Of a DNA stretch of 64,000 nucleotides, positions 4,526-62,866 are shown in pieces. Location of the stretch: positions 82,665-146,664 of the forward strand of contig BPGW01000004.1 of assembly GCA_026003235.1 (NCBI GenBank). Direction: 5' to 3'. Source of the DNA: Bacteroidia bacterium. GTDB lineage: Bacteria; Bacteroidota; Bacteroidia; SpSt-205. How positions within the stretch are numbered: the stretch's first letter is position 1; each line of letters starts with the position of its first letter. Under the pieces are notes generated by a model that saw only the letters and a list, made by a program, of their open reading frames with translations, made no database searches and was not told where the DNA came from. The position numbers and the translations under genes are program-made.

Positions 4526-4533
4526 CGAAGGTA
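4526..4533 (-). promoter_or_regulatory. Imperfect -7 box TACCTTCG, 4 nt upstream of the ChaN-family GTG (4521)
   Basis: One mismatch to TAnnTTTG. It has the same spacing as the other operon heads. Confidence 0.35.
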
Positions 4534-4564
4534 GAGAGAAGCCGGGTATTCGCTCCAAGTTCTG

Positions 4565-4572
4565 TACTTTTG
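4565..4572 (+). promoter_or_regulatory. -7 box TACTTTTG, 6 nt upstream of the rpmI ATG (4579)
   Basis: Exact TAnnTTTG match at the head of the rpmI-rplT-fabD operon. Confidence 0.55.
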
Positions 4573-4578
4573 CGGGTC

Positions 4579-4770
4579 ATGAAGGGGCATTCAGGCAGCC
4601 AAAAGCGCTTCAAGCGGACGGCGACCGGCAAGCTGATGCATAAAGCGACGGGCCGGCGCCACAACTTCTCTTCTAAAAGCCGGCGGCGCAAGCGCGCCCT
4701 GCGTAAGGATAGACTTGTCAAGCCTGCGGATAAAGCCCGCCTCTCGCTGATTACGGTTTATCTGGACTGA
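4579..4770 (+). CDS. rpmI: 50S ribosomal protein L35
   Basis: 63 aa. MKGHSGSQKRFKRTATGKLMHKATGRRHNFSSKSRRRKR is classic L35. It is an internal ATG of the 4420..4770 track ORF. Confidence 0.9.
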   Translation: MKGHSGSQKRFKRTATGKLMHKATGRRHNFSSKSRRRKRALRKDRLVKPADKARLSLITVYLD

Positions 4771-4773
4771 GCT

Positions 4774-5121
4774 ATGCGGACAAAAAATAGGGTAGCTTCT
4801 CGCGAACGGCGGCGCCGTATCCTGCGTCTGACGAAAGGCTACTGGGGTCGTAAGAAGAATGTTTTCCGTCATGCCCACAACCAGCTTCAGAAAGGGTGGG
4901 TCTATGCCTACATTCACCGCAAGCGCAAGAAGCGGGATTTTCGGCGGCTGTGGATTGTGCGTATTGGGGCGGCGGTGCGAGCCCATGGCCTTTCTTACAG
5001 CCAGTTCATCCACAAGCTGAAGAAAGCGGGTCTGGCGCTGAATCGCAAAATGTTGGCGGATCTGGCGGTTACGCAGCCCTCGGCCTTTGCGGCGCTCGTG
5101 GAGAAAGTGAAGGCTGTCTAA
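4774..5121 (+). CDS. rplT: 50S ribosomal protein L20
   Basis: 115 aa. [40 protein letters not shown]. Confidence 0.95.
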
Positions 5122-6002
5122 TGGGGGTAGCGCTCCTTTTTCCTGGGCAAGGGTCGCAAGCACCCGGCATGGGTAAGGCCCTGTATGAGAGCCGTCCTGA
5201 TCTGCGGCCTCTGTTTGAGGAAGCGGAAGCGGTCACGGGCCTTCCTCTGCGTGAGCTGCTCTTTTCGGGTAGTGCGCAGGACCTTCAGCGCACCTCTGTA
5301 ACGCAGCCCGCCCTCTATGTGCACGGTTATGCGGTGGCCCAGGCGCGGGGAATAACCCCGCAGGCGGTGGCGGGCCATTCGCTGGGGGAGTTCACGGCGC
5401 TGGCGGTGGCAGGGGTGTTCTCGTTTTCCGAGGGGTTAGCGCTGGTTCATGTGCGGGCCCAGGCGATGCAGGAGGCTTGCGATGCTCGCCCCAGTACCAT
5501 GGCAGCCATCATAGGCCTGCCTGACGACACGGTAGAAGCCCTTTGCCGGGAAGTGACCGAAGGCTTGGTGGTTCCAGCTAACTACAACTCGCCAGGGCAG
5601 CTTGTGGTGTCGGGGGAAACCGCCGCCGTGGAAGCGCTCATGCAAAAAGCCAAGGCCGCAGGCGCCCGCCTGGTCAAAAAGCTGGCCGTCAATGGCGCTT
5701 TCCACTCCCCCCTCATGGAATCGGCTCGTCAAAAGCTCGCCGCCGCCATTGAGAAGACGCCGTTCCGAGCCCCGGCGTGCCCCGTATACCCCAACGTAAC
5801 AGGCCGGCCTGAGACAGACCCCGACAAGCTCAAAACCCTGCTGATTCAGCAGCTTACGGCCCCTGTCCGTTGGACCCAGACCCTCCTGGCCATGTGGGAG
5901 GCCGGCATTCGCACCTTTTACGAACTGGGGCCGGGCAATGTCCTCTGCGGCTTGGTACGCCGTACTTTGCCAGAAGCTACCGCGCTCGCTTACGATGCAT
6001 AG
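5121..6002 (+). CDS. fabD: Malonyl-CoA:ACP transacylase
   Basis: Starts at the ATG overlapping the rplT TAA (TAATG). FPGQGSQAPGMG and the active-site GHSLGEF are present. 293 aa. Confidence 0.95.
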   Translation: MGVALLFPGQGSQAPGMGKALYESRPDLRPLFEEAEAVTGLPLRELLFSGSAQDLQRTSVTQPALYVHGYAVAQARGITPQAVAGHSLGEFTALAVAGVFSFSEGLALVHVRAQAMQEACDARPSTMAAIIGLPDDTVEALCREVTEGLVVPANYNSPGQLVVSGETAAVEALMQKAKAAGARLVKKLAVNGAFHSPLMESARQKLAAAIEKTPFRAPACPVYPNVTGRPETDPDKLKTLLIQQLTAPVRWTQTLLAMWEAGIRTFYELGPGNVLCGLVRRTLPEATALAYDA

Positions 6003-6025
6003 AAACTCGTATATTCGTTTTGTCT

Positions 6026-8822: not shown

Positions 8823-9664
8823 CATTTGCCGCCAACCTGAAACCGTACAAATTCCGCTACCGTGAGGGTGGGAGAAACCGACTTGAGATACTGTCCCACG
8901 CTTTTTTGGCTGTCTTTGAAAAACTCCTGCTCAAGTAGGACCGACTCTTTGAAGAATTTTTCGAGCTTGCCCATGGCGATTTTGTCTAAGAGGTGTTCGG
9001 GCTTGCCTTCGGCGCGGGCTTGCTCGCGAGCTATTTCCTTTTCCTTTTCCAGGAGGGCCGGAGGCACGGACTGCCGGTCTACGCTCACGGGGCGCAGGGC
9101 CGCCACTTGCATGGCTACGTTCTGGGCTACTTCTTCCAGTACCTCGGCAGAAAGACCTTGGGTGCCCTTGAGGGCGACCAGCACGCCTATGCGGCCCCCC
9201 AGGTGAATATACGCGCTGACATACTCGCCGGTCAAGCGAGCCCATCGGCTGATTTCCATCTTTTCACCGATGCGGGCTGTGAGCTCGGCCAGCCGGTCGG
9301 CCAAAGGTACCCCCTCTATGTGCAAGGTTGAAAGGGCCTCAGCCGAGGAGATGTGGGCTTCTAAGGCGGCTTGGGCGATTTTTTTCCCAAAAGCTTGGAA
9401 GTCGGCATTGCGGGCTACGAAGTCCGTTTCGCAAGCCAGCAGAATCAAGTGCCCTTCCTGGGTGTTCCAAGCGGCAAAAACAGCCCCTTCTTTGGCGTCT
9501 CGTTCTTGCCGGGCAGCGGCCATCTTATGGCCTTTCTTACGCAGGATCTCTATCGCTTTTTCAAAGTCACCTTGGGCTTCTTCCAGCGCTTTTTTGCAGT
9601 CCATGATGCCTGCCCCTGTGGTCTCTCGCAGGCGCTTTACCTGCTCGGCTGTGATAGCTGTCAT
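8822..9664 (-). CDS. tsf: Translation elongation factor Ts
   Basis: 280 aa. [42 protein letters not shown]. The stop overlaps the pyrH ATG (TGATG). Confidence 0.95.
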
Positions 9665-9669
9665 GGCTG

Positions 9670-9677
9670 CAAAGGTA
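9670..9677 (-). promoter_or_regulatory. -7 box TACCTTTG, 5 nt upstream of the tsf ATG (9664)
   Basis: Exact TAnnTTTG match at the head of the tsf-pyrH-mscS-dapF run. Confidence 0.55.
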
Positions 9678-14384: not shown

Positions 14385-14845
14385 AACCCACGCAGAAGGG
14401 TGGAAACGGGTACCTCTTCTCGGTAAACGCCCTTGAGCTTTCCAAGGGAATCATACACATAAAGTGTCGGCGCCACGCTGTATCCAAAAAAGCCATCAAA
14501 CTTGAAGTCTCTGTCACGAAGTACGATAGCCTGAGGCAGAGCTTTGAGGTAGGTGTCTTTGAATTTTTGTATAGCTTCCGAAGTTTCGGTGGAGACCCAG
14601 ATCAGTTGGATGCCTTTGAGCTGGGTGGCGCTTTCTTGGAAGAAGGTGGCTTGCTTTTGGCAGTGGTCGCAGTAAGGGTCAAAGAAGATGACGATTCGGC
14701 CCCGTGGAGCGGGGGGCAGGTCCTTGTCGGTGAAGGGCTTGCCATCCAGGGTATAAAAGAGAAAGCGCGGAAACTGCTGAGCTGGGGGATACTTTTCTGG
14801 CTGGGCAAAGAGGTAAAGCCCGCTTAGCAAGGCCAGGTACCGCAT
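14381..14845 (-). CDS. Thioredoxin-fold (TlpA/redoxin-like) secreted protein
   Basis: Signal peptide MRYLALLSGLYLFAQ and a CxxC motif, FFDPYCDHCQKQ. Confidence 0.65.
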   Translation of the reverse strand: MRYLALLSGLYLFAQPEKYPPAQQFPRFLFYTLDGKPFTDKDLPPAPRGRIVIFFDPYCDHCQKQATFFQESATQLKGIQLIWVSTETSEAIQKFKDTYLKALPQAIVLRDRDFKFDGFFGYSVAPTLYVYDSLGKLKGVYREEVPVSTLLRGL

Positions 14846-14849
14846 GCCT

Positions 14850-14857
14850 CAAAAGTA
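14850..14857 (-). promoter_or_regulatory. -7 box TACTTTTG, 4 nt upstream of ATG 14845
   Basis: Exact TAnnTTTG match at the head of the seven-gene minus-strand run 14845 to 11648. Confidence 0.55.
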
Positions 14858-14876
14858 GGCAAAAATCCTGCCATAC

Positions 14877-14884
14877 TACCTTTG
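14877..14884 (+). promoter_or_regulatory. -7 box TACCTTTG, 4 nt upstream of GTG 14889
   Basis: Exact TAnnTTTG match at the head of the NSS transporter / TM-TPR / purN run. It lies 19 nt from the divergent box. Confidence 0.55.
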
Positions 14885-14888
14885 CCGG

Positions 14889-16397
14889 GTGGAAAGATGG
14901 GCCAGTCGCTTAGGGGCGCTCCTGGCGCTGATTGGAGGGGCGGTAGGGCTGGGTAACTTTTTGCGCTTTCCCTTCCAAGCGGCCAAATGGGGAGGAGGGG
15001 CCTTTCTGGTGCCCTACTTCGTGGCCCTCGTTTTCGTGGCCTTGCCGCTGGTGTGGATGGAAATGGCCCTTGGGCGGGCTAGCCGACGCACCGCAAGCTT
15101 ACCGCATCTGCTCCAAGATCTGGCCGCACAGAAGGGGCGCCTCATCGGGCTGTTGGGCCTGTATGTGAGCTTGGGCATAGCAAGCTATTATGCGTACCTG
15201 ACGGGGTGGACCCTGGGCTACAGCGTGCACGCTCTCCTCGGCACTTTCAGAGGGCGATCGCTGGATCAGACGGTGGCTTTTCACTCGGTCTTCCTCCGGC
15301 AAGAAGGATGGGTCTTTTACCTTGGGGTGTGGCTGATCTTAGGTCTGGTTTTGCGCAAGGGCCTGCAAAAGGGCCTGGAAGCGCTGAGTAGGTATGCGAT
15401 TCCCCTGCTTTTCTTGCTGGCGGTAGGGATTGCGGTGGGTACCCTGCTTTTGGGCCACACAGGCCGGTGTGACACCTGCTCGGTAGGGGTGGGGTTGGCT
15501 TACTTGTATAAGCCCCGGTGGGAGGCGCTGGCCCAACCGGCGGTATGGCTGGCCGCCACCGCGCAGGTGTTTTTCTCTGTAGGAGTGGGCTTTGGCATGT
15601 ACCCGGTATACGCCGCCCATGCTGGCCGCCTCAACGCTTACCGAGAAGGGCTTCTCACCGTCTTGGCTAACACCGTGGCCGAAGTAGGCCTGGGAGGGCT
15701 TATCGTGATCCCCCTCACCACGGCGTTCTTGGGTCTGGAAGCTACGCAAGCCCGAGCGAGCTTCGGGATGGGCTTTGAGGTGATGCCCTACGTGCTTGAT
15801 GCCTGGGGAGGAAGGCTCCTGGTCCTGGCCTGGTATGCCCTCCTGTTTTTAGCGGCCTTCACTTCGCTCATCGCCATGGCGTGGGTAGGACTTGTGTGGC
15901 TTGCCGAAGAGCTGGGAGGATCGCCGGCTCGGTGGACCTGGCCGCTCATGGGAGCCTTAGCTCTACTCGGCCTGCCGACGGTGGTGGGCTTCTCCGAAGG
16001 TACGCTCGACCTGTACGATTACTGGATGAGCAACCTCTTCCTCCTTCTGTCCGCGCTGGGCTTCTGGTACATCTTTCGTTTGCGCCCCCTGTGGCAAGTC
16101 CTAGAAGAGGAAAGCGCCTTTCGGATGCCTCTCTTTCTTAGGCGGATCCTCCTCATCACTCCGCCGGCATTTCTGGGCGCGCTGCTTGTCGGAAGCTTTT
16201 TTCAGCCTGCCCAAGCAGACTGGGTAGGCGCTTTTCGCAGCCTAATCCACACGGGCCGGTGGCCTTTTTCGCCAGACGCCTTACCGGTGTGGCTGGGAGC
16301 TAAGCTCTTCGCTTCGCCTGTGAATGGCGTCGGCTTCCTCCTGCTGCTGGCTTGCGGGATGAGCCTTTTACTTTTGTCGCGCCGTGCGCGCACCTGA
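14889..16397 (+). CDS. Sodium-dependent transporter (NSS/SNF family)
   Basis: 502 aa. WASRLGALLALIGGAVGLGNFLRFPFQAAKWGGGAFLVPYF is the NSS TM1 signature. The protein is polytopic. Confidence 0.85.
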   Translation: MERWASRLGALLALIGGAVGLGNFLRFPFQAAKWGGGAFLVPYFVALVFVALPLVWMEMALGRASRRTASLPHLLQDLAAQKGRLIGLLGLYVSLGIASYYAYLTGWTLGYSVHALLGTFRGRSLDQTVAFHSVFLRQEGWVFYLGVWLILGLVLRKGLQKGLEALSRYAIPLLFLLAVGIAVGTLLLGHTGRCDTCSVGVGLAYLYKPRWEALAQPAVWLAATAQVFFSVGVGFGMYPVYAAHAGRLNAYREGLLTVLANTVAEVGLGGLIVIPLTTAFLGLEATQARASFGMGFEVMPYVLDAWGGRLLVLAWYALLFLAAFTSLIAMAWVGLVWLAEELGGSPARWTWPLMGALALLGLPTVVGFSEGTLDLYDYWMSNLFLLLSALGFWYIFRLRPLWQVLEEESAFRMPLFLRRILLITPPAFLGALLVGSFFQPAQADWVGAFRSLIHTGRWPFSPDALPVWLGAKLFASPVNGVGFLLLLACGMSLLLLSRRART

Positions 16398-22054: not shown

Positions 22055-22710
22055 GACAGAATCGTGATGCGGGGGAATTTGAGCGGTAAGCGACCCAGCG
22101 TAAAACGAATCGCTTCGTATGCGCTGTCCAGCACATTTTGCCCCATCAGCTCAAGAGGCACCCGCATGTACGTCTCAATGGCCTTTTCCGTGTCCTGGAA
22201 GCCCTCCGACTCGTCGTTGAGCCAGAATTGGATCAGACCCCAGTGCAGGCCCCACAACACATCCAGGTACAGCGTCTCCAGATGGCGAGACTGAATCTCC
22301 TCGGCAATCACCCCCTCTTGGATAACCTCCGCCATGTGGTTGCGAAACTTACGCTGGTAGCCCCGCAGAAGGGAAAACTGGGTGTAAGTCTCGGCAATAA
22401 AGCTGCGATCTTTCACCGCCATCTCAAAAAAGGTGAAAAGATACGCCAGAATCTTTTCCCGAGCTGAGTAAGAGGCGTAAGTTTCGGAGCCTTTGAGGGT
22501 TTGGATCACTTCATCGGCGTACTGGGTCCAGATTTTGCGGCCCACCGCATCCAGCGAAGCAAAGTGCTTGTAAAAATCCGCTTCAGAGATGTCTAAGAGC
22601 TTGCAGAAGGCGTACACGCTCATCTTGCGGATTTTCTTTTCTACGGTGAGCTGCTTGTACAGGTCTACGATGCGCGCCTCAAGGGCGGCTTCTTTTGTTT
22701 TGCTGGCCAT
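22051..22710 (-). CDS. TetR/AcrR-family transcriptional regulator
   Basis: 219 aa. N-terminal HTH-like SVYAFCKLLDISEADFYKHFASLDAV. The stop overlaps the next start (ATGA). Confidence 0.6.
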   Translation of the reverse strand: MASKTKEAALEARIVDLYKQLTVEKKIRKMSVYAFCKLLDISEADFYKHFASLDAVGRKIWTQYADEVIQTLKGSETYASYSAREKILAYLFTFFEMAVKDRSFIAETYTQFSLLRGYQRKFRNHMAEVIQEGVIAEEIQSRHLETLYLDVLWGLHWGLIQFWLNDESEGFQDTEKAIETYMRVPLELMGQNVLDSAYEAIRFTLGRLPLKFPRITILS

Positions 22711-22717
22711 ACCTGGG

Positions 22718-22725
22718 CAAAGGTA
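22718..22725 (-). promoter_or_regulatory. -7 box TACCTTTG, 7 nt upstream of the TetR-family ATG (22710)
   Basis: Exact TAnnTTTG match, embedded in TTTGCC-N4-TTTGCC. Confidence 0.5.
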
Positions 22726-22748: not shown

Positions 22749-22756
22749 TATTTTTG
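22749..22756 (+). promoter_or_regulatory. -7 box TATTTTTG, 5 nt upstream of GTG 22762
   Basis: Exact TAnnTTTG match. It lies inside the track ORF start (22735), which argues for the GTG start. Confidence 0.5.
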
Positions 22757-22761
22757 TCAAG

Positions 22762-23646
22762 GTGAGATGTCTATGGCTGGCGGAAGCGGGTGCCACCAAA
22801 ACGCATTGGGGGTGTGCGCTGGAGGGGGAAGGGCCTTCCTTGTGGCGGTGGGTCCGACGGGCTGGCCTCAACGCCGAAGCCGAAGGATGGCCCCAAGCAG
22901 AAGAAAACCTTCGCACCACCGTCCGGTTCCTCCTTACCGAAGCGGGCTGGCCCCCTCCTACCGAGTTGTATTACTACGGTCCAGCCCTCCACCGCCCTGA
23001 AGCCCAACAGCGCATGCAACGGCTCTTAGCCGAAGTAGGGGCGCTTCCCCTTCAGCGGGTCTTCGTTTTCCACGATCTCTTGGGGGCAGCTCGGGGGGCC
23101 TACCCCGAAGGACAAGGCATCGTAGCGATCCTCGGAACGGGGTCTAATTGCGCTTTTTGGGATGGGGAAGCTATCCGCCGGCAGGCAGGGGGACACGGCT
23201 ACCTGCTGGGCGACGAAGGGAGCGGGGCCGACTTAGGGCGCCAGCTTATAAGCGCCCTCCTCCACGACGAAGTTCCCCGCGACCTTGTCCGGAGGCTGGA
23301 AGCGCAGGGGCTTTACCCTTCGCTCCATGACCTGCGAAGCGCCGTGTACAGGGCACCTCGGCCCTCGGCTTTTCTGGCGGGGTTTGTGCCGGCTCTGGCG
23401 GCCCTGGCCGACCATCCTTGGGGTCGTGCGCTGGTACGAAGCCGTTTTGAGGCGTTTATCCGGCGCACATGGGCCCGTTGGCCAGCACCCCGACCCGTAA
23501 AGTACGTAGGCGGCGTGGCCGAAGCGTTTGAGCCTTTACTTCGGGCCGTTACCGAGGAGTATGGGGGGCTCTTCCAGGGGGTAGTCCCAGGCAAGCAGCT
23601 GGCCGAAAGGCTTCTGGCCTACCACCTCAGCTCAAAGCAAAGCTAA
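22762..23646 (+). CDS. BadF/BadG/BcrA/BcrD-type ATPase (N-acetylglucosamine kinase-like)
   Basis: LWLAEAGATKTHW (phosphate-1), ILGTGSNC, and GGHGYLLGDEGSGADLG. Start placed at the in-frame GTG after the -7 box. Confidence 0.7.
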   Translation: MRCLWLAEAGATKTHWGCALEGEGPSLWRWVRRAGLNAEAEGWPQAEENLRTTVRFLLTEAGWPPPTELYYYGPALHRPEAQQRMQRLLAEVGALPLQRVFVFHDLLGAARGAYPEGQGIVAILGTGSNCAFWDGEAIRRQAGGHGYLLGDEGSGADLGRQLISALLHDEVPRDLVRRLEAQGLYPSLHDLRSAVYRAPRPSAFLAGFVPALAALADHPWGRALVRSRFEAFIRRTWARWPAPRPVKYVGGVAEAFEPLLRAVTEEYGGLFQGVVPGKQLAERLLAYHLSSKQS

Positions 23647-25039: not shown

Positions 25040-26241
25040 GAGACGGAGGCAGGCAGGACTTTCAGTTTTTGCCCCACGCGTTTGAAGGCTTCCACGGCTT
25101 TTTCAATGTGAGCTGGGGTATGGGCGGCGCTCAGCTGGACCCGAATGCGCGCTTGTCCTTTGGGCACCACGGGGTACGAAAAGCCGATTACATAGATGCC
25201 TTCTTCCAGCAGGAGGTCCGCAAACCGGTTAGCCAGCACGGCGTCATACAGCATAATCGGCACGATGGGGTGGTCGCCCGGTTTGAGGTCAAAGCCCGCC
25301 TCTTGCATCTGACGGCGGAAGAGACGGGTGTTTTCCTCCAGGCGGTCGCGCAGTTCGGTGGTCTCGCTCAGCCAAGAGAAGATCTCCTTAGCCGTGGCAG
25401 CTATCACAGGCGAGAGGGAATTGGAGAAGAGGTAAGGACGGGAGCGCTGGCGCAAGTATTCAATCACGGGGGCGGGCCCCGCTATATAGCCTCCCATAGC
25501 TCCGCCGAGGGCTTTGCCCAGGGTGCCTGTCAAAATGAGCCGGAGAGCCCCCAGCAGGCCAAACTTCTCGGGGGTACCCCGTCCTGTAGGCCCTACAAAC
25601 CCCGTGGCGTGCGAGTCGTCCACAACCACCCACGCATCGTACCGTTCTGCCAGGGCAAAAATCTCCGGCAAAGGCGCATAGTCCCCGTCCATAGAGAAGA
25701 CCCCATCCGTTACGATCACCCGGAAGCGAGCGTCCTGAGCTTCCTTGAGCCGGGCTTCCAGCTCGTTCATGTCGGCGTGGGCATAGACGAGCCGTCTGGC
25801 CTTGCATAAGCGAATGCCATCAATCAAGCTGGCGTGGTTGAGCGCATCTGAAATGATGGCGTCTTCTGGGCCCCAGAGGGGTTCAAAGATCCCTCCGTTG
25901 GCATCAAAGCAGGCGGCATACAGGATGGCGTCTTCGCAGTGGAGGAATTGGGCTAAGGTCGCCTCAAGCTCTTTGTGGGTGGTCTGCGTGCCGCAGATGA
26001 AGCGCACCGAAGCCAGGCCATAACCCCATCGGTCTAAGGCCCGATGAGCTGCTTCTATCACGCGGGGATGCGAAGCCAGGCCAAGGTAGTTGTTGGCGCA
26101 GAAGTTGAGTACGGTCCGACCATTGGCCAGCCGGATTTCTACCCCTTGGGGCGTGTCTATCACCCTTTCGTGTTTGTAGAGGCCGGCTTGCCGCACTTCG
26201 TCTAACTGGGCCTGGAGGTGCTCCAAGAAGCGATCCTGCAT
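25036..26241 (-). CDS. kbl: Glycine C-acetyltransferase (2-amino-3-ketobutyrate CoA ligase)
   Basis: [17 protein letters not shown], and [13 protein letters not shown].. followed by VDDSHATGF. Start at ATG 26241 (MQDRFLEHL..), 5 nt after a -7 box. Confidence 0.85.
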
Positions 26242-26246
26242 ACAGG

Positions 26247-26254
26247 CAAAGGTA
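26247..26254 (-). promoter_or_regulatory. -7 box TACCTTTG, 5 nt upstream of the kbl ATG (26241)
   Basis: Exact TAnnTTTG match. It lies inside the longer track ORF (26292). Confidence 0.55.
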
Positions 26255-26279: not shown

Positions 26280-26287
26280 TACCTTCG
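26280..26287 (+). promoter_or_regulatory. Imperfect -7 box TACCTTCG, 3 nt upstream of ATG 26291
   Basis: One mismatch to the consensus. It is the same variant as at the ChaN-family gene. Confidence 0.3.
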
Positions 26288-30282: not shown

Positions 30283-30821
30283 TAGTAGCCAAAGCTCACC
30301 CGAGCACCCACCTGGTAGCTAAAAGTGGGCTGGAACTCTTCTATGATCTCTCCTCGAGCCCGCACGGACCCAAATAGCTCAAAATGCCGCACTACATTGA
30401 AGAGTACGCCCAGCCCTGCGTAGACATCTGGAACGATGACTGGCTTTTCGGTTGTGCCGCCGTTTCCATCGGGCTGGGGCAGCTTGTTGTAGTAGTAGGC
30501 CCGCCCGCCGAGGTCTAGGTAAGGTAGAAACCAGTAAATCCCGCAATCCCGGGTAAGCCAGGTGCCCAAGATGCCCTGATTCATGCCCAGGCCGAGGACA
30601 TACCCTTCCTTGAGGCCTGTCACATGAGGGGCGCGAGAGCGGCCCCACCCGCCCGCAATTTCCACGAAGGTATACTCGCTATACCCCAAGGGCAGCCGGA
30701 AGGAGGCCCCTATCAGGTGCGGCCCGTACGTGCCCCCTATACCTACTCGCCCAAAACCCCCTATCCCTCTCTGGGCTTGTAAGAGAGCTCCCAGCAGCAA
30801 GCCTAAAGCTATCGCTCGCAT
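30282..30821 (-). CDS. Hypothetical outer-membrane beta-barrel protein
   Basis: 179 aa. Signal peptide MRAIALGLLLGALLQAQ, Gly/Tyr-rich, ends in aromatic ..VSFGY. Confidence 0.45.
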   Translation of the reverse strand: MRAIALGLLLGALLQAQRGIGGFGRVGIGGTYGPHLIGASFRLPLGYSEYTFVEIAGGWGRSRAPHVTGLKEGYVLGLGMNQGILGTWLTRDCGIYWFLPYLDLGGRAYYYNKLPQPDGNGGTTEKPVIVPDVYAGLGVLFNVVRHFELFGSVRARGEIIEEFQPTFSYQVGARVSFGY

Positions 30822-30825
30822 AAGG

Positions 30826-30833
30826 CAAATATA
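30826..30833 (-). promoter_or_regulatory. -7 box TATATTTG, 4 nt upstream of ATG 30821
   Basis: Exact TAnnTTTG match at the head of the OMP / amidohydrolase / M19 run. Confidence 0.55.
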
Positions 30834-31518: not shown

Positions 31519-31526
31519 TATCTTTG
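31519..31526 (+). promoter_or_regulatory. -7 box TATCTTTG, 4 nt upstream of ATG 31531
   Basis: Exact TAnnTTTG match at the head of the three-gene PPIase/SurA run. Confidence 0.55.
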
Positions 31527-31530
31527 CGCC

Positions 31531-35599: not shown

Positions 35600-36409
35600 T
35601 TATACGGCCACGGGGGCTGGAATAGCGGGGTGATGTTGGTAGTTCACCAGCTCAATGTCCTCAGGCCTGAAATCGTCCAGTTCCTGGCGGAGGGGATTCA
35701 GACGGATTTGCGGCAAGGGGTAGGGGGAGCGAGTAAGCTGGAGGCGAGCCTGCTCTTCGTGGTTGCGGTAGAGGTGGACATCCCCTAAGGCCATGATCAC
35801 CCGATGTGGCCGATACCCCGTCACTTGGCCTACCAGGTGCAGAAGCAGCGCATAAGAAGCCACGTTGAACGGCAGACCTAAGAACACATCCGCGCTACGC
35901 TGGTACACTTGAATAGAGAGCCTTTGGGTGTCCGGCTCTGCGTAAAACTGGAAGAGTACATGACAAGGTGGCAGATGCATCTGGGGGATCTGGGCCACAT
36001 TCCAAGCAGAGACAAGGAGGCGACGGCTGTAGGGATTTTCCCGGAGGGTTTTGATCACGGCGGCCAGCTGGTCGTACACTTCTCCCTGATAGCCGGGCCA
36101 TCGCCGCCATTGATAGCCGTAGATAGGTCCCAGTTCGCCATCCGGGCCCGCCCATTCATCCCAGATGGTTACACCGTGCTCGTGCAGATACCGAATGTTG
36201 GTATCGCCTCGTAAAAACCAGAAAAGTTCGTACAGGATGGAGCGGAAATGCACTTTTTTCGTGGTGAGGAGGGGGAAGCCCTCTTCCAGGTTGGCTTCTA
36301 TTTGCAGGCCAAATAGGCCGCGTATGCCCACTCCCGTGCGGTCAAGGCGTATGGGAGCTGACAAAAGGCGCTCCAGCAGAGAGAGGTAGTCGCGCTCGTA
36401 GCGGCTCAT
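35600..36409 (-). CDS. thyA: Thymidylate synthase (ThyA type)
   Basis: 269 aa. DRTGVGIRGLFG, and LPPCHVLFQFY with the catalytic Cys. Confidence 0.95.
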   Translation of the reverse strand: MSRYERDYLSLLERLLSAPIRLDRTGVGIRGLFGLQIEANLEEGFPLLTTKKVHFRSILYELFWFLRGDTNIRYLHEHGVTIWDEWAGPDGELGPIYGYQWRRWPGYQGEVYDQLAAVIKTLRENPYSRRLLVSAWNVAQIPQMHLPPCHVLFQFYAEPDTQRLSIQVYQRSADVFLGLPFNVASYALLLHLVGQVTGYRPHRVIMALGDVHLYRNHEEQARLQLTRSPYPLPQIRLNPLRQELDDFRPEDIELVNYQHHPAIPAPVAV

Positions 36410-36414
36410 CTACA

Positions 36415-36422
36415 CAAAGCTA
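36415..36422 (-). promoter_or_regulatory. -7 box TAGCTTTG, 5 nt upstream of the thyA ATG (36409)
   Basis: Exact TAnnTTTG match. Confidence 0.5.
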
Positions 36423-36455
36423 TAACAAAACCCATGCCAGTTTTCCGCAGGCTAT

Positions 36456-39314: not shown

Positions 39315-40343
39315 TTAGCGAGGCCTTTCAAATAGCAGGAGTTTCACGCCGAGGGCGTGGGCTTGGTCCTGGGCTTGGGCCGTGAACCGAGTGCCCCAAG
39401 CGACCGGTTGGATAGTCGGCTTTTCGTCTGCGTAGAGTTTATGCAGGAGTTGAGCACGGCGGGCTGCTCGCTCCACATCGTACGAGTCTACGGTCCATGA
39501 GACTTCCACAGCAAAGAGATAGAGGTGGGGTTCGTGGACGCGTCGTGCTACTACGATGAGGTCTAACTGCATGAGATCCTGGTACTCTTCGGGGGTGAGC
39601 TGGTTTTCTTCAAGCGCTTTTTCCAGCCGTTCGCCCAGTTCTACGGGTTCAAAAGCTTTGATGCGATAGAAGCCCAAATTAGCGAAATAAGCGGGGGCTT
39701 TTTGAGCGGCGCGCAATTCTTGCATGGCGCCTTTGAGCTCACCGAGGTCTCTTTCAGCCCGTTCCATTCGCTCAGTAAGGTCAATCATTCGCTGGGTGAG
39801 GTCGTTTACCCGCTGGGTTAGCTCATCCATGCGCTGGGTGAGGTCATTTACCCGCTGGGTGAGGGCTTCGATTTGGGCTTCCACGCGTTCCATGCGCTGG
39901 GTGAGGTCGTTTACCCGCTGGGTGAGGGCTTCAATTTGGGCTTCTACGCGTTCCATGCGCTGGGTGAGGTCGTTTACCCGCTGGGTGAGGGCTTCGATTT
40001 GGGCTTCCACGCGTTCCATGCGCTGGGTGAGGTCGTTTACCCGCTGGGTGAGGGCTTCAATTTGGGCTTCTACGCGTTCCATGCGCTGGGTGAGCTGTTC
40101 CAGGTGATGGGCTAAGAGACTCACCTGGCGGGTAAGCTGGGTCATTTGCTCGGTGAGCGTTTGAACAGCCTGCTGAAGGGGTAGATGTTCCTGCTGCACG
40201 AACTCTTCAAATCGCCTCGGATGCTGCAGAAGTTCGTCTGAAAGGAGGAGCGTACGCAGCTGCTCCCGCCATTCGGGGTGCTCCTGCAGGATGCGAACCA
40301 GGTCCGTAATGGACCCTATGGACAAGGGACCAGGCTGGCTCAT
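39315..40343 (-). CDS. Coiled-coil tandem-repeat protein with a small C-terminal domain resembling a degenerate PD-(D/E)XK fold; function unknown
   Basis: 342 aa. Residues about 90-215 are uninterrupted heptads, including four identical 21-aa units (RMERVEAQIEALTQRVNDLTQ). The C-terminus reads ..QLDLIVVARRV..HLYLFAVEVSWTVDSYDVERAARRAQLL..VAWG... The gene has its own -7 box. Confidence 0.8.
   Translation of the reverse strand: MSQPGPLSIGSITDLVRILQEHPEWREQLRTLLLSDELLQHPRRFEEFVQQEHLPLQQAVQTLTEQMTQLTRQVSLLAHHLEQLTQRMERVEAQIEALTQRVNDLTQRMERVEAQIEALTQRVNDLTQRMERVEAQIEALTQRVNDLTQRMERVEAQIEALTQRVNDLTQRMDELTQRVNDLTQRMIDLTERMERAERDLGELKGAMQELRAAQKAPAYFANLGFYRIKAFEPVELGERLEKALEENQLTPEEYQDLMQLDLIVVARRVHEPHLYLFAVEVSWTVDSYDVERAARRAQLLHKLYADEKPTIQPVAWGTRFTAQAQDQAHALGVKLLLFERPR
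39789..40096 (-). repeat. In-frame tandem repeat array: four full 63-bp units (39831-40082) plus partial units on both flanks
   Basis: Units at 39831, 39894, 39957 and 40020. Units 2 and 4 are identical. Units 1 and 3 differ at one base. The odd and even units differ at two bases, giving an ABAB pattern with 126-bp higher-order periodicity. Confidence 0.95.
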
Positions 40344-40350
40344 CTTCCTC

Positions 40351-40358
40351 CAAAGATA
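40351..40358 (-). promoter_or_regulatory. -7 box TATCTTTG, 7 nt upstream of ATG 40343
   Basis: Exact TAnnTTTG match for the repeat-protein gene. Confidence 0.5.
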
Positions 40359-45147: not shown

Positions 45148-45570
45148 TCAGCAGTATTCGTCAAAGAGGGCCGTCAGGACTCGGGCAATGGATTGAGGCG
45201 TGTGGCCCTCTATTTCATGCCGGGGGATGAAGTGCACCAGTTCGCTGCCCTTCCAGAGGGCTATGCTGGGGGAAGAAGGCGGATGAGGGGCCAGGTACGC
45301 GCGCAAGGTGGCGGTGGCTTCTTTGTCCACACCCGCAAACACGCTATAAAAGTGGTGCGGTTTTTTGGGGTGTTGCATGGCCAGGGCCACAGCCGGCCGA
45401 GCCGAAGCTGCCGAGCACCCACACACCGAGTTGATGAGGAATAGAGCCGTTTCGCCGCTCGATCGCAGCGCTGCGATGGCCGCCTCCACCTCTTCGGGCG
45501 TGCGCAGCTCCTTCAGCCCTATTTGGACGGTTTCTTGGCGGATGGGTTCCACGACGTAGGTTGGGTACAT
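45148..45570 (-). CDS. Bacilliredoxin (BrxA/BrxB, YphP/YqiW family)
   Basis: 140 aa. LINSVCGCSAASARP carries the CGC redox motif characteristic of the family. Confidence 0.8.
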   Translation of the reverse strand: MYPTYVVEPIRQETVQIGLKELRTPEEVEAAIAALRSSGETALFLINSVCGCSAASARPAVALAMQHPKKPHHFYSVFAGVDKEATATLRAYLAPHPPSSPSIALWKGSELVHFIPRHEIEGHTPQSIARVLTALFDEYC

Positions 45571-45574
45571 GGCG

Positions 45575-45582
45575 CAAAGTTA
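45575..45582 (-). promoter_or_regulatory. -7 box TAACTTTG, 4 nt upstream of ATG 45570
   Basis: Exact TAnnTTTG match. Confidence 0.55.
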
Positions 45583-45628: not shown

Positions 45629-46462
45629 CTAAAATCGGAGGGGGAGCTGCAGATTCCGTGGTGGGGAGGCCTTTTCTGGCAAGTGGGCTGGCCGAGGGAA
45701 AGGCTGCCCTTCCACCCAGAGGTTTGTCCATATCCAGCTTTCGGTCAAGGTGCTGGGGTAGTAGTCGTTTATGCGCACGAGGTAGGCGTAGGGGATGGGT
45801 TGGGAGAGGGTCTTTTCTAAGAGGCGGCGCAGGTGTCGGGGGAGGCGGCGAAGGGGTTGGCTGACGGTCTCTTCGTCGTAGGGGAGCCGAGGATCCTGGT
45901 GTATCAGGAGGCCTGCCTTTTCCAGGCGAGCGGTGCCGTCTGGGAAAGTCCTGAGGGTGAGGCTAAAGGCGCTAAGGCGTCCTCTGGGCGGGCGCTTGTA
46001 CAAGAGCCAGCCCTGCAGAAGGGGTTCTAGATAGGATAGGTTGGTCAGCCCCAAGGTATCGCCGGGCACCTGCGGACGCGGCGCTACAGGTAGCAGGAGT
46101 TCTATCTCTCGGTAGGGGCGGCGGCCTGGCAGCCACACCGCCGGGCCACACAAACACCGAAAGGCCTTTTGCATCCAACGCAGGTTAGGGGGCCGGCTCT
46201 GGAAGATCACCGAATCCTCCCCCCGTAAAAAGTACCACACCCAGTGGTCCTGGTCTTGGCAGACACGATAAAGCGCTACCCCTTTCTGCAGAAAAAAGCT
46301 TTTAGGTGGAGGCAGCTTGCTGTGTATTTCTCGCAGGTCCAGCTTAGCGCTGGCTTGCCTTAAGGCCCGTAGGCTACCGGCTTTTTCTGCCCAAACCCTG
46401 TCCTGATGAACCAGGTCATAGGGAAGGGCGCACGATTGCACCCACAGCAGTAGGGTCAGCAC
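45629..46462 (-). CDS. Hypothetical lipoprotein
   Basis: 277 aa. The GTG start gives MLTLLLWVQSC (lipobox-like). No family recognised. Confidence 0.4.
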   Translation of the reverse strand: MLTLLLWVQSCALPYDLVHQDRVWAEKAGSLRALRQASAKLDLREIHSKLPPPKSFFLQKGVALYRVCQDQDHWVWYFLRGEDSVIFQSRPPNLRWMQKAFRCLCGPAVWLPGRRPYREIELLLPVAPRPQVPGDTLGLTNLSYLEPLLQGWLLYKRPPRGRLSAFSLTLRTFPDGTARLEKAGLLIHQDPRLPYDEETVSQPLRRLPRHLRRLLEKTLSQPIPYAYLVRINDYYPSTLTESWIWTNLWVEGQPFPRPAHLPEKASPPRNLQLPLRF

Positions 46463-46467
46463 TTCCT

Positions 46468-46475
46468 CAAAGGTA
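46468..46475 (-). promoter_or_regulatory. -7 box TACCTTTG, 5 nt upstream of GTG 46462
   Basis: Exact TAnnTTTG match. Confidence 0.5.
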
Positions 46476-52113: not shown

Positions 52114-52170
52114 CTGGGTAGGCCCAAGGGGACTTTATAGCAGGGGCTTTTGTTTTTTTGTTCGGCCTCT

Positions 52171-60675: not shown

Positions 60676-60679
60676 CTTA

Positions 60680-60687
60680 CAAAGGTA
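60680..60687 (-). promoter_or_regulatory. -7 box TACCTTTG, 4 nt upstream of GTG 60675
   Basis: Exact TAnnTTTG match at the head of the six-gene run 60675 to 53180. Confidence 0.55.
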
Positions 60688-60701
60688 CACAAGCTGGAAT
60701 G

Positions 60702-60709
60702 TACTTTTG
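60702..60709 (+). promoter_or_regulatory. -7 box TACTTTTG, 5 nt upstream of the folA ATG (60715)
   Basis: Exact TAnnTTTG match, 14 nt from the divergent box. Confidence 0.55.
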
Positions 60710-60714
60710 CCCTA

Positions 60715-61209
60715 ATGTGGACTATTGTGGCGGCGCTCTCTGCGTATAACCGAGGGATCGGGCTAAAGGGGCGTTTGCCTTGGCGCATTCCGATGGAGCT
60801 TCGCCTCTTTCGGCAAGAGACGTGGGGGGGGGTGCTCATAGTAGGGCGCCGCACTTGGGAAAGTCTGGCCCGACCCCTGCCAGGCAGAGAGCTATGGGTG
60901 CTGTCCCGTCAGCGGCTGGGCCCCCAGGCAGGGGTGCGATTTTTCCCAGGAGAGCAAGCGCTCCTTCAGGCCCTTGAAAAAGAGACACGACCGGTCTTTT
61001 TTGCGGGGGGAGAGCAGCTTTACCGGTGGGCCCTATCCTTGCCGCAAGTGCAGGAGCTTCGGCTTAGCTGGGTGTATACCCCCGCAGAGGCCGATACTTT
61101 CTTCCCGGCTTTTTCCGAGGCCGAATGGCAGGTGTATGCAACCGAGTTTTTTGACGCTTGCAGCCCTTATCCCAGCTTCGTGAGAGCCTTCTACAAACGA
61201 ATTCCCTGA
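60715..61209 (+). CDS. folA: Dihydrofolate reductase
   Basis: 164 aa. IVAALSAYNRGIGLKGRLPWRIPMELRLFRQETWGGVLIVGRRTWESL. Confidence 0.9.
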   Translation: MWTIVAALSAYNRGIGLKGRLPWRIPMELRLFRQETWGGVLIVGRRTWESLARPLPGRELWVLSRQRLGPQAGVRFFPGEQALLQALEKETRPVFFAGGEQLYRWALSLPQVQELRLSWVYTPAEADTFFPAFSEAEWQVYATEFFDACSPYPSFVRAFYKRIP

Positions 61210-61211
61210 AT

Positions 61212-61427
61212 ATGCCGCTGCGAGCGAAATTATATGCCTTCCTTTTATCCCGCGTTTTTTGGGCAGTACCTTCTTACATAGCGCTGCTCAGAGAAGACCC
61301 TCATCCATGGCCCTTAGATCCAGGCACATTGGGCAAGGAGATCCGGGCTCTTGAGCGTTCGCAGGCGTGGGAGAAAATCTGGGACCGGGATGGCCTGGTT
61401 ATTTTCCGGCGTCGCCCTCAAAGGTGA
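61212..61427 (+). CDS. Small hypothetical membrane protein (71 aa)
   Basis: ATG 2 nt after the folA stop, one hydrophobic helix (LYAFLLSRVFWAVPSYIALL). It overlaps the lpdA 3' end by 10 nt. Weak support. Confidence 0.3.
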   Translation: MPLRAKLYAFLLSRVFWAVPSYIALLREDPHPWPLDPGTLGKEIRALERSQAWEKIWDRDGLVIFRRRPQR

Positions 61428-62806
61428 ATGACCTCGCCGTAGGCGGCTGCGGCGGCTTCCATGATGGCTTCGGAGAGGGTGGGGTGGGGGTGGATGGTTT
61501 TAGCCAGCTCGTGGCCGGTGATCTCCAGGCGCCGCGCCACAATCAGCTCGCCAATAAGCTCCGTGGCATTCGGCCCTATAATATGGGCACCCAACAGTTC
61601 CCCATACTTCGCCTCAAAGATCAGCTTTACAAAGCCTTCATTTTTACCCAAAGCTGAGGCCTTCCCCGAGGCGGTATAAGGAAACTTGCCGACTTGTACT
61701 TCATACCCTTTTTCTCGGGCGGCTTTTTCGGTCAGGCCCATGGAAGCTACTTCAGGTTGGCAGTAGGTGCAGCTGGGGATGGTGGAGTAGTCCAGGGGTT
61801 GGGGGTTCAGGCCGGCGATGTGTTCTACGCAGAGGATGCCTTCCATAGAAGCCACATGAGCCAGGGCGGGGGTGCTTAGCACATCGCCGATGGCATACAC
61901 GCCGGGCACCGAAGTCCGGTAATACGCGTCTACGGGGATGCGCCCTTTTTCCAGCTTGATGCCGAGCTCTTCCAGCCCCAGGTTTTCGGTGTTGGGGGTG
62001 ATGCCTACCGCCAAAAGGGCTTTTTCGGCTTCTACGACCAAGGTTTCCTTAGGGGTTTGGAGGGTGGCTTTGACGCCTTTGCGGGTTTTTTCCAAGCTGG
62101 TTACCTGGGTGCTGGTGAGGATAGTCAGGCCTTTTTTGCGGTAGATTTTTTCCAGCTCGCGGGCGATCTCTTCGTCTTCCCGGGGGAGGATATGGGGGAG
62201 GGCTTCCACCAGGGTGACCCGGGTGCCGAGGGTGTGGTAAAAGTAGCTAAACTCCACACCAATAGCCCCTGCGCCGATGACCAGGAGACTTTCGGGTTGT
62301 TTGGGCAGGGTCATGGCTTCCCGGTAGCCGAGCACGGTTTTGCCGTCTATCTGGATGTGGGGTAGGTTGGCTGCACGCGCCCCAGTGGCCACGATGATGT
62401 GAGAAGCCTGGAGCCGTCGCTTTTCCCCCTTTTCGGAGGTGACTTCCACTTCCTTGGAAGAGAGCAGGCGAGCTGTACCCTGGATGACTTCAATTTTATT
62501 CTTTCGCATCAGGTAGTCTATGCCCCGGCTCATTTTATCGGCCACCTGGCGGCTGCGTTGGATAATCTGAGGAAAGTCGATCTGCGGCGCGCTGGTCTTG
62601 AAGCCGTACGCTTCGGCCTGAAGGAGGTATTCTAGCACTTCGGCGGACTTTAGCAGGGCTTTGGTGGGGATGCAGCCCCAGTTGAGGCAAATCCCCCCTA
62701 GCCGTTCTCTTTCTATGAGTTGTACCTGTAGGCCAAGCTGAGCGGCCCGAATGGCGGCTACGTAACCGCCGGGTCCCCCGCCTATTACGATCAGGCGCTT
62801 CTCCAT
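61418..62806 (-). CDS. lpdA: Dihydrolipoyl dehydrogenase
   Basis: 462 aa. VIGGGPGGYVAAIRAAQLG, redox disulfide GGICLNWGCIPTK, and C-terminal HPHPTLSE. Confidence 0.95.
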   Translation of the reverse strand: MEKRLIVIGGGPGGYVAAIRAAQLGLQVQLIERERLGGICLNWGCIPTKALLKSAEVLEYLLQAEAYGFKTSAPQIDFPQIIQRSRQVADKMSRGIDYLMRKNKIEVIQGTARLLSSKEVEVTSEKGEKRRLQASHIIVATGARAANLPHIQIDGKTVLGYREAMTLPKQPESLLVIGAGAIGVEFSYFYHTLGTRVTLVEALPHILPREDEEIARELEKIYRKKGLTILTSTQVTSLEKTRKGVKATLQTPKETLVVEAEKALLAVGITPNTENLGLEELGIKLEKGRIPVDAYYRTSVPGVYAIGDVLSTPALAHVASMEGILCVEHIAGLNPQPLDYSTIPSCTYCQPEVASMGLTEKAAREKGYEVQVGKFPYTASGKASALGKNEGFVKLIFEAKYGELLGAHIIGPNATELIGELIVARRLEITGHELAKTIHPHPTLSEAIMEAAAAAYGEVIHL

Positions 62807-62810
62807 GGCG

Positions 62811-62818
62811 CAAAGATA
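62811..62818 (-). promoter_or_regulatory. -7 box TATCTTTG, 4 nt upstream of the lpdA ATG (62806)
   Basis: Exact TAnnTTTG match. Confidence 0.55.
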
Positions 62819-62858
62819 CGGGCCTGCTTGCCTGGGCTTGCGAATGAGGTTTTAGCCG

Positions 62859-62866
62859 TATATTTG
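62859..62866 (+). promoter_or_regulatory. -7 box TATATTTG, 22 nt upstream of ATG 62889
   Basis: Exact TAnnTTTG match. This is the only operon head in the window with a clearly longer leader. Confidence 0.45.

Follow-up and report, generated by a model that had tools for sequence, protein, structure and literature searches.

The stretch of DNA analysed here, called the window below, comprises 64,000 nucleotides (nt) of the Bacteroidia bacterium assembly GCA_026003235.1 (contig BPGW01000004.1, forward-strand positions 82,665 to 146,664) and has a G+C content (GC) of 59%. The subject of the analysis is the octamer TAnnTTTG, the -7 element of the Bacteroidota primary sigma factor as described for Flavobacterium johnsoniae (PMC6847099), which in the window stands directly in front of the first genes of operons (operon heads). 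Recognisable promoters number 26, and 25 of them, 23 with an exact octamer and two with a variant, are found 3-7 nt from the start codon, a distance at which the messenger RNAs (mRNAs) of these operons would probably be leaderless.

The placement within Bacteroidia is based on similarity of the seryl-tRNA synthetase SerS, on protein names in metagenome-assembled genomes (MAGs) and on domains of the type IX secretion system type. Proteins of the window recur in the Logan assemblies of runs SRR24490441 and DRR290133, and one of the source runs is presumably hot-spring sediment. A SerS-based scan of genome contigs returned no close relative among the matches listed; near relatives were found by a metagenome scan with the M1 peptidase. 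One relative is represented by three near-identical contigs of megabase scale (L083-L085), which are syntenic with the window over 21.7 kb at 79% DNA identity.

Each of the following lines gives the coordinates of box plus start codon, the strand, the box, the gap between box and start codon, the gene with its length in amino acids (aa) where relevant, and the basis of the assignment. The relative just described is named L083.

4519..4533, minus strand: variant box TACCTTCG (4526-4533), 4-nt gap, GTG 4521; ChaN-like haem-binding gene (Pfam Cofac_haem_bdg) with signal peptide MRTLWLILPLGLIAQD, head of the operon 4521..964, divergent from rpmI
4565..4581, plus strand: box TACTTTTG, 6-nt gap, ATG 4579; rpmI (L35), followed by rplT and fabD; NCBIfam rpmI_bact with residue 1 at profile position 3
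9662..9677, minus strand: box TACCTTTG, 5-nt gap, ATG 9664; tsf, the box lying 5 nt past the stop codon of the upstream adhesin gene; TIGR00116 aligned 1 to 1, Prodigal-type call of 280 aa
11537..11551, minus strand: box TATCTTTG, 4-nt gap, GTG 11539; PKD/CHU_C adhesin with signal peptide, frameshifted at 11351
14843..14857, minus strand: box TACTTTTG, 4-nt gap, ATG 14845; AhpC/TlpA-like gene heading a five-gene operon; no upstream in-frame start, signal peptide
14877..14891, plus strand: box TACCTTTG, 4-nt gap, GTG 14889; SNF/NSS transporter, promoter back to back with that of 14845 (43 nt from start codon to start codon); Pfam SNF with residue 2 at profile position 2, public call of 502 aa
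16369..16386, plus strand: box TACTTTTG within the 3' end of the SNF gene, 7-nt gap, GTG 16384; TPR protein of 944 aa, the length of the public call
22708..22725, minus strand: box TACCTTTG, 7-nt gap, ATG 22710; TetR-family regulator heading a three-gene operon
22749..22764, plus strand: box TATTTTTG, 5-nt gap, GTG 22762; 294-aa protein, labelled BadF-type in an earlier reading, for which a Pfam search gave no match
26239..26254, minus strand: box TACCTTTG, 5-nt gap, ATG 26241; kbl (glycine C-acetyltransferase); NF005394 aligned 1 to 1, 401-aa form in public calls and one variant call of 418 aa
26280..26293, plus strand: variant box TACCTTCG, 3-nt gap, ATG 26291; 154-aa secreted protein with signal peptide, divergent from kbl
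30819..30833, minus strand: box TATATTTG, 4-nt gap, ATG 30821; 179-aa outer-membrane-type protein heading a three-gene operon; kept in L083
30853..30867, plus strand: box TACCTTTG, 4-nt gap, ATG 30865; udk; kept in L083 with a diverged spacer between the boxes
31519..31533, plus strand: box TATCTTTG, 4-nt gap, ATG 31531; 647-aa peptidyl-prolyl isomerase (PPIase); in L083 a 10-nt indel lies upstream and box, gap and ATG are identical
36407..36422, minus strand: box TAGCTTTG, 5-nt gap, ATG 36409; thyA; the box reads TAACTTCG in L083
39260..39276, minus strand: box TATCTTTG, 6-nt gap, ATG 39262; serS, then glyS; kept in L083; TIGR00414 aligned 1 to 1, tblastn matches from residue 1 in nearly all of the 80 species listed
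40341..40358, minus strand: box TATCTTTG, 7-nt gap, ATG 40343; 342-aa coiled-coil protein; kept in L083
40372..40386, plus strand: box TATCTTTG, 13 nt from the opposed box ending at 40358, 4-nt gap, GTG 40384; M1 peptidase; GTG and gap kept in L083 despite longer upstream ATG starts in the window
45568..45582, minus strand: box TAACTTTG, 4-nt gap, ATG 45570; BrxA/B bacilliredoxin; TAACTTCG in L083; TIGR04191 with residue 2 at profile position 1
46460..46475, minus strand: box TACCTTTG, 5-nt gap, GTG 46462; 277-aa lipoprotein with lipobox MLTLLLWVQSC; kept in L083
46486..46500, plus strand: box TATCTTTG, 4-nt gap, ATG 46498; glycogen-debranching-type enzyme, divergent from 46462 with 35 nt between the start codons; kept in L083
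50816..50832, plus strand: box TAATTTTG overlapping the stop codon of the upstream gene, 6-nt gap, ATG 50830; thioredoxin-TPR protein; box TAAGTTTG with unchanged gap in L083
60673..60687, minus strand: box TACCTTTG, 4-nt gap, GTG 60675; NifS/IscS-type cysteine desulfurase heading a five- or six-gene operon; NCBIfam alignment with residue 4-5 at profile position 1-4
60702..60717, plus strand: box TACTTTTG, 5-nt gap, ATG 60715; folA
62804..62818, minus strand: box TATCTTTG, 4-nt gap, ATG 62806; lpdA; TIGR01350 with residue 4 at profile position 3, no alternative start within 40 codons
62859..62891, plus strand: box TATATTTG, 22-nt gap, ATG 62889; TonB-dependent receptor, predicted leader of about 17-18 nt

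Octamers and operon heads

The chance level for octamer counts was taken from dinucleotide-preserving shuffles of the window. Exact TANNTTTG sites number 31 against 19.3 +/- 3.7 expected, and none of the shuffles reached 31. A preliminary description of this DNA, made from the letters alone, had placed an octamer just before the first gene of nearly every co-directional run. This holds, as 23 of the 31 sites lie 4-7 nt before an ATG or GTG which opens a real gene. In the automated form of the count, a start codon 3-8 nt downstream had to open an open reading frame (ORF) of at least 100 aa, which is the case for 5.8% of arbitrary positions on both strands and for 21 of the 31 octamers (binomial P ~3e-19). 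Two of the 23 boxes are missed by this criterion, that of rpmI because the gene is too short and that of the adhesin because it is frameshifted. Altogether the octamer was found at 26 heads or internal promoters and at none of 32 internal starts.

By gap, the 23 boxes divide into 11 at 4 nt, six at 5 nt, three at 6 nt and three at 7 nt, and every value previously given for a named gene was recovered. The earlier gene list was correct for all the genes it named and had left out one 7-nt case, the coiled-coil gene at 40343. Likewise, no head except that of the TonB-dependent receptor has a real leader, as had been said, and the 'several' GTG starts amount to 8 of 25 heads; the other 17 use ATG and none uses TTG, which occurs only at the internal junction 22054. 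Counted from a hexamer equivalent TAnnTT, the gap of 4-7 nt corresponds to 6-9 nt (23 exact and two variant cases).

Both of the one-mismatch heads proposed at 3-4 nt are present, at 4526-4533 (minus strand), 4 nt before GTG 4521, and at 26280-26287 (plus strand), 3 nt before ATG 26291. Each is the otherwise box-less partner of a divergent pair, and each gene encodes a signal peptide from the predicted Met. Additionally, TTCG variants stand in for TTTG at orthologous boxes of L083. The sequence TANNTTCG is not enriched in the window overall (18 against 15 expected), and the two TACCTTCG heads therefore rest on position and context, not on statistics. One-mismatch octamers as a class were rejected, being near starts in 5.5% of cases against the 5.8% of the null, and only these two heads were kept.

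In F. johnsoniae the invariant bases of the promoter are T-12, A-11, T-8, T-7, T-6 and G-5, the transcription start site (TSS) follows 4 or 5 nt further on, and G is virtually absent at -10 and -9, giving TAHHTTTG (PMC6847099). The box of F. psychrophilum is likewise found at -12 to -5 (PMC9723704). The proposed identity of the octamer with this element agrees with the published consensus, including the avoidance of G at the N positions: 22 of the 23 start-proximal boxes are TAHHTTTG and four of the eight non-proximal octamers are of the TAG type, so that functional and chance sites are told apart independently of position.

Since the Flavobacterium box extends from -12 to -5 with 4-5 nt to the TSS, the modal gap of 4 nt would make the first base of the start codon, A or G, position +1. 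A gap of 5 nt allows this base or its immediate upstream neighbour as the canonical +1, and at gaps of 6-7 nt a purine is found at the canonical +1 in most cases. A transcription start within a couple of nucleotides of the start codon, as previously suggested, is what the gaps and the Flavobacterium geometry predict, and all tests at the level of the sequence agree with it.

A -33 element was not detected. There is no T/G signal at -37 to -27, where a TTG occurs in 4 of 37 boxes from the clade, compared with 86 of 325 from the outgroup. The -33 element is weak or undetectable in F. johnsoniae too (PMC6847099) and is thus not strictly defining for a sigma-A promoter. A TTG 1-3 nt upstream of the TA had been noted at many boxes as a possible extended element. 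The element is real but optional, as it is found at 8 of 23 window boxes where fewer than one is expected, that is, at only about a third of them. Among 37 independent boxes of the clade it recurs at 10, compared with 31 of 325 promoters in the outgroup, and where present it is kept in L083.

By strand, all eight extra TTGs belong to the 13 boxes on the minus strand and none to the 10 on the plus strand, which may be chance. GC skew is positive throughout the window, and the minus strand may be the lagging strand. A sigma-54 reading of the extended TTG was tried and rejected, as TGGCA-N6-TTG occurs three times against 2.7 expected and only the thyA and AhpC/TlpA heads fit it.

Between 28 and 48 kb, sigma-70-type -35/-10 promoters number 6 against 5.9 expected, none of them at heads, and intrinsic terminators number 22 against 25 expected. 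Rfam and tRNA scans of the window returned no leader, riboswitch, L20 leader or tRNA.

Conservation in relatives and contrast with other Bacteroidota

In L083 nine boxes are kept with their exact gaps, namely those of the outer-membrane-type protein, udk, the PPIase, serS, the 342-aa protein, the M1 peptidase, the lipoprotein, the debranching enzyme and the thioredoxin-TPR protein. The spacer beside the kept boxes is diverged or carries indels, and the sequence between the boxes of the outer-membrane-type protein and udk is unrelated. The boxes of thyA and bacilliredoxin both read TAACTTCG there. The 9 kb examined to the left of the window (L162) add three exact boxes 6-7 nt before called starts, in front of genes for a Por_Secre_tail protein, PheS and a SurA-like PPIase.

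Below tiers of 91%, 87% and 81% SerS identity comes a group of about 45 MAG proteins labelled 'Bacteroidia bacterium' (72-77%), then a single protein at 67%, and all others reach 63% at most. Four loci from this clade with SerS 67-77% identical and GC of 0.49-0.55 were inspected, and boxes 4-8 nt before called starts were found in about 4-5 of 5 cases in L164 (GCA_026003215.1), 6-7 of 8 in L166 (GCA_026414975.1), 5 of 7 in L169 (GCA_033581695.1) and 5 of 8 in L165. The nearest outgroup loci, L167 (a Chitinophagales MAG) and L168, have a GC of 0.53-0.55 and a single leaderless-type gene each, their other leaders measuring 10-23 nt or more.

A uniform automated count was applied to the window, the clade loci and an outgroup of 80 other Bacteroidota species among the SerS tblastn matches listed. 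It takes each TAHHTTTG and the first ATG or GTG behind it that opens at least 100 aa.

Window: 26 boxes, 20 with a gap of 4-7 nt and 2 with a gap of 9-60 nt
Other clade loci: 50 boxes, 20 with a gap of 4-7 nt and 10 with a gap of 9-60 nt
80 other Bacteroidota species: 1089 boxes, 38 with a gap of 4-7 nt and 334 with a gap of 9-60 nt (mode 13-30)

The comparison with other Bacteroidota thus sets 38 of 1089 boxes at 4-7 nt against 20 of 26 in the window, and the median outgroup locus scores 0. The outgroup shows a small excess at two gaps, with 15 sites at 4 nt and 16 at 5 nt where neighbouring gaps have 3-7 each, and this agrees with the few per cent of leaderless mRNAs measured in the phylum.

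The layout is specific to the clade and strongest in the lineage of the window, and it is not explained by GC. An implied link to thermophily or high GC was not borne out, and high GC was ruled out as a cause: L165 and L169 share the trait at a GC of 0.49, and L167 and L168 do not have it at 0.53-0.55. Within the sample the trait is independent of GC, which argues against high GC or heat having forced the loss of A-rich leaders.

Outside the clade, a freshwater 'Bacteroidia bacterium' MAG (L008, ME2018-07-17..., GC 0.45, SerS 58%) has four of about six promoter-like boxes 4-5 nt before long ORFs (e.g. 8505-8532, 13927-13934 and 17990-17997), including a back-to-back pair 13 nt apart. L045, L053, L055 and L062 carry 2-3 boxes each at 4-5 nt before long ORFs. 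Within Bacteroidota, architectures rich in leaderless genes may have evolved repeatedly.

Probable leaderless heads and alternative explanations

We put the probability at roughly 80% that the octamers are -7 elements of the primary sigma factor (sigma-A or sigma-ABfr type) which give leaderless operon heads throughout the clade. RNA polymerase would recognise TAHHTTTG without a detectable -33 element, with about a third of the promoters adding a TTG at about -17 to -15, and would initiate 4-5 nt past the box, either at the first base of the start codon (A or G) or 1-3 nt ahead of it. The mRNA would begin with AUG or GUG, and the ribosome would bind this 5'-terminal start codon directly, without a Shine-Dalgarno (SD) sequence or an A-rich leader. 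For the translation of downstream cistrons, ribosomes would terminate and reinitiate, either at ATGA or TAATG overlaps or over gaps of 1-12 nt, and opposed promoters in shared spacers of 35-57 nt would compete for polymerase.

Several points weigh against leaderless heads. The TSS positions are extrapolated from Flavobacterium and Bacteroides, and the six genes with gaps of 6-7 nt would have mRNAs with 1-3 extra nt unless the TSS shifts. Additional upstream promoters may lie inside neighbouring genes. In model Bacteroidota short-leader mRNAs make up only 3.7-13%, and efficient leaderless translation by their ribosomes is putative at this scale. Finally, the sample consists of the 64-kb window and about 100 kb from relatives, and rpoD lies outside the window and all loci compared with it.

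On balance, and by a narrow preference, we favour the wider view that an uncultured Bacteroidia clade, seen mainly as MAGs, is near-exclusively leaderless at its operon heads (about 90% or more in the lineage of the window, which would be the highest proportion known in any bacterium). Such a clade would have switched from the leadered, SD-independent A-rich mode to promoters with a -7 element only, positioned to make the start codon +1, and to reinitiation at overlapping stop and start codons in every downstream gene.

The alternative that survives best, which we nevertheless regard as improbable, accepts the boxes as promoters and places the true starts further downstream, or adds promoters upstream, so that most functional mRNAs would be leadered. 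Alternative in-frame starts do exist near a few heads, 5 codons downstream for kbl (TTG), 4 for udk and folA (GTG) and 3 for the debranching enzyme (GTG), and one public annotation makes kbl 17 codons longer (P0020). For the majority of heads one has to go 14-38 codons into the gene to meet another in-frame start, and in 15 of 24 cases the reading frame holds no start codon between the in-frame stop upstream and the predicted start. L35, EF-Ts, Udk, ThyA, SerS, FolA, LpdA, Kbl, the NifS/IscS-type protein and bacilliredoxin all align to full-length NCBIfam profiles (10 of 10), with protein residue 1-7 at profile position 1-9. In ten non-conserved heads the predicted Met is the first residue of a short signal peptide or lipobox, e.g. 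MRYLALLSGLYLFAQ, MRAIALGLLLGALLQAQ and that of the lipoprotein at 46462, and the signal peptides need the predicted Met-Arg N-terminus. Similarity to the 79%-identical relative resumes at the box and continues through the predicted start codon.

Exact sequences of SerS, Tsf, LpdA, Kbl, ThyA and the debranching enzyme are found in a public protein collection, the longer Kbl being a single variant, and public gene callers have thus picked the same starts. On a 99.5%-identical contig (L001) the gene calls agree for five heads, of which three are GTG. The start-codon assignments at the heads are validated by these sequence comparisons and are sound.

The signal peptides at 4521, 11539, 14845, 26291, 30821, 31531, 50830 and 62889 are unusually short and stereotyped, consisting of Met-Arg, 9-13 hydrophobic residues and A/T-Q, with a total of 13-17 aa.

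Less probable still is a role of the octamer in translation initiation, as a non-SD or 'Kozak-like' element at -12 to -5 inside longer leaders that start from upstream promoters. Its fixed short distance to the start codon would suit a ribosome-binding site (RBS), and it also stands before genes close behind a neighbour on the same strand (tsf, the PPIase, the thioredoxin-TPR gene and the 944-aa TPR gene). An element of this kind is difficult to reconcile with the absence of the octamer from all 32 internal genes, including those with gaps of 1-12 nt, and with its identity to an experimentally defined -7 box down to the avoidance of G at the N positions. In the 80 other Bacteroidota, moreover, the octamer is mostly 13-60 nt before starts, which is promoter-like rather than RBS-like.

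The divergent pairs bear on the same question. Seven of them have 35-57 nt between the start codons, with two opposed boxes 10-31 nt apart in each spacer; in the eighth, lpdA and the leadered TonB-dependent receptor, the start codons are 82 nt and the boxes 40 nt apart. In spacers of 35-57 nt any further upstream promoter would fall inside the coding sequence of the neighbour. With two opposed boxes at such a distance, the paired promoters of the leaderless heads should compete for polymerase.

Box-less junctions on the same strand comprise 14 overlaps of 4 nt (ATGA or TTGA), three overlaps of 1 nt and nine gaps of 1-12 nt. The preliminary description had joined the downstream genes by ATGA/TGATG overlaps, and most of them do share an ATGA. 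SD-like 4-mers are found upstream of 5 of 32 internal starts against a background of 20%, i.e. without enrichment. Internal genes with neither a box nor an SD sequence would fit coupling by termination-reinitiation.

The only long same-strand spacer without a box is 52114-52170 (57 nt, with the T-rich run CTTTTGTTTTTTTG). It precedes ATG 52171, the probable start of a radical-SAM gene of the MqnC/CofH type (mqnC-like), which may be a leadered internal gene or have an atypical promoter. A gene for a 168-aa HNH endonuclease (42941-43447, plus strand) lies inside the co-directional run of M1 peptidase, NlpC-P60 and amidohydrolase genes, 17 nt past the preceding stop codon and without a box.

Chance, base composition or a selection artefact, with starts picked because they are near the motif, would draw on the many long spurious ORFs of high-GC DNA and on the 5.8% of arbitrary positions that meet the start criterion, but we regard it as refuted by the 21 of 31 sites (P ~3e-19), by one-mismatch sites lacking such enrichment (5.5%), by the independent support for the starts and by the layout being kept in relatives and out of sample.

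Comparison with known systems and further observations

Among Bacteroidota, the sigma-ABfr or sigma-A promoters of B. fragilis, B. thetaiotaomicron, F. johnsoniae and F. psychrophilum (-33 TTTG, -7 TAnnTTTG) have the same octamer with the same preference against G, and a T-rich or TTG tendency at -19 to -15 is common to the window and the outgroup. In the model species these promoters are tens of nucleotides from the start codon, whereas 25 of 26 in the window are at 3-7 nt, many of them paired back to back 10-31 nt apart and without a -33 element. The median 5' untranslated region (UTR) of model Bacteroidota is 24-32 nt and short leaders make up 3.7-13%. For B. thetaiotaomicron, 3.7% of the 5' UTRs are shorter than 10 nt (median 32 nt), and 5.5% of F. 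psychrophilum mRNAs are leaderless (PMC9723704). Leaderless initiation has been considered, and then rejected, for F. johnsoniae, F. psychrophilum and B. thetaiotaomicron.

GeneMarkS-2 places 90% of Bacteroidetes/Chlorobi in its non-SD leadered group B; in group C (Actinobacteria and Deinococcus-Thermus) it predicts 25-50% leaderless operons, with a distance of 6-8 nt from promoter motif to start, and 167 of 262 (64%) were measured as leaderless in D. deserti (PMC6028130). The window shares with group C (Mycobacterium, Streptomyces; Deinococcus-Thermus) a -10-type element placed a constant few nucleotides before the first start codon, the use of ATG or GTG as starts, heads without an RBS and heavy use of 4-nt ATGA overlaps downstream. 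Among short junctions, the share of such overlaps exceeds 60% in Actinobacteria and is 20% in the Fibrobacteres-Chlorobi-Bacteroidetes (FCB) group, which has low-to-mid GC and AT-rich RBSs (StartLink, PMC9581028). The window differs from group C in belonging to another phylum, in using the sigma-ABfr octamer instead of the TANNNT Pribnow box and in having internal genes without SD sequences, and its predicted share of 25 of 26 heads exceeds both the 25-50% predicted for group C and the 64% measured in D. deserti. The organisation would thus be 'Actinobacteria-like', with leaderless heads and ATGA coupling, yet built on a Bacteroidota -7 promoter and apparently with no SD sequence anywhere.

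Archaeal leaderless transcription (Haloferax, Sulfolobus; group D), with 60-80% of operons leaderless and weak or absent SD sequences as in the window, resembles it in outcome only, since archaea use TATA/BRE at about -26 and other transcription and translation machinery. In bidirectional bacterial promoters, opposed -10-type elements share a short spacer and drive divergent genes. The pairs in the window differ in that both transcripts are predicted to be leaderless, so that the control region and both 5' ends would fit in 35-57 nt; to our knowledge, these regions are among the most compact bidirectional control regions.

A literature search found no description of a mostly leaderless Bacteroidota lineage; the GeneMarkS-2 supplementary tables, which possibly list such genomes, were outside this search. 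Zheng et al. reported leaderless genes in 1 of 37 Bacteroidetes/Chlorobi genomes with a method that recognised Pribnow-type promoters only, and some papers speculate on leaderless mRNAs in Bacteroidetes. Leaderless expression itself is well known elsewhere, and what would be new is its predominance in a Bacteroidota clade. Near-exclusively leaderless heads would contrast with all Bacteroidota studied experimentally and contradict the working picture of the phylum, and the clade suggests that the machinery of the phylum can probably run a genome leaderlessly.

Bacteroidota ribosomes sequester the anti-SD sequence and carry bS22. The clade offers a comparative entry into how start codons are chosen without SD pairing in this phylum, the handle being changes in sigma-A, IF3, bS21, bS22 or S1 along its branch; if the heads are leaderless, the clade is a natural experiment on this choice. 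For gene calling, Bacteroidota MAGs are usually modelled with an AT-rich non-SD RBS, and here the promoter box would be the best predictor of the start, particularly for GTG starts such as that of the M1 peptidase, which gene callers would otherwise extend to upstream ATGs. The compact divergent regions could serve as parts for Bacteroidota synthetic biology.

A sigma-54-like motif TGGCAY-N5-TTTG(C/T) lies just upstream of the thyA -7 box (36426-36439, minus strand). It is kept in five clade genomes (window, L083, L164:6104-6173, L166:12780-12849 and L169:12779-12848), although the sequence of the thyA -7 box varies among them (TAGCTTTG, TAACTTCG, TACTATTG, TACTTTG). The motif occurs again upstream of the AhpC/TlpA box (14860-14873, minus strand) and shows no overall enrichment in the window. 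It could act as an additional promoter or as the binding site of a regulator, or it could be the extended TTG combined with chance.

An exact TACATTTG box is antisense within serS (38598-38605, plus strand) and kept in the 79%-identical relative (L083 8159-8166); its conservation could reflect coding constraint or an antisense promoter.

Two genes are interrupted relative to L001. A 1-nt insertion at 11351 frameshifts the adhesin (9682-11539, minus strand), which in L001 is an intact ORF of 618 aa from a GTG 4 nt past the box. The gene pyrH (UMP kinase, minus strand, ATGATG 8825/8822), directly after tsf with an ATGA overlap, is split into ORFs of 53 and 188 aa by a 1-nt length difference in a run of nine C (8659-8667, plus strand). 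The 53-aa call is seen in L002 too, and the split stems either from an error in the assembly or homopolymer or from genuine variation between strains.

The genes rpmI-rplT (4579-6002) are not preceded by infC, unlike in many bacteria, and fabD follows rplT with a 1-nt overlap.

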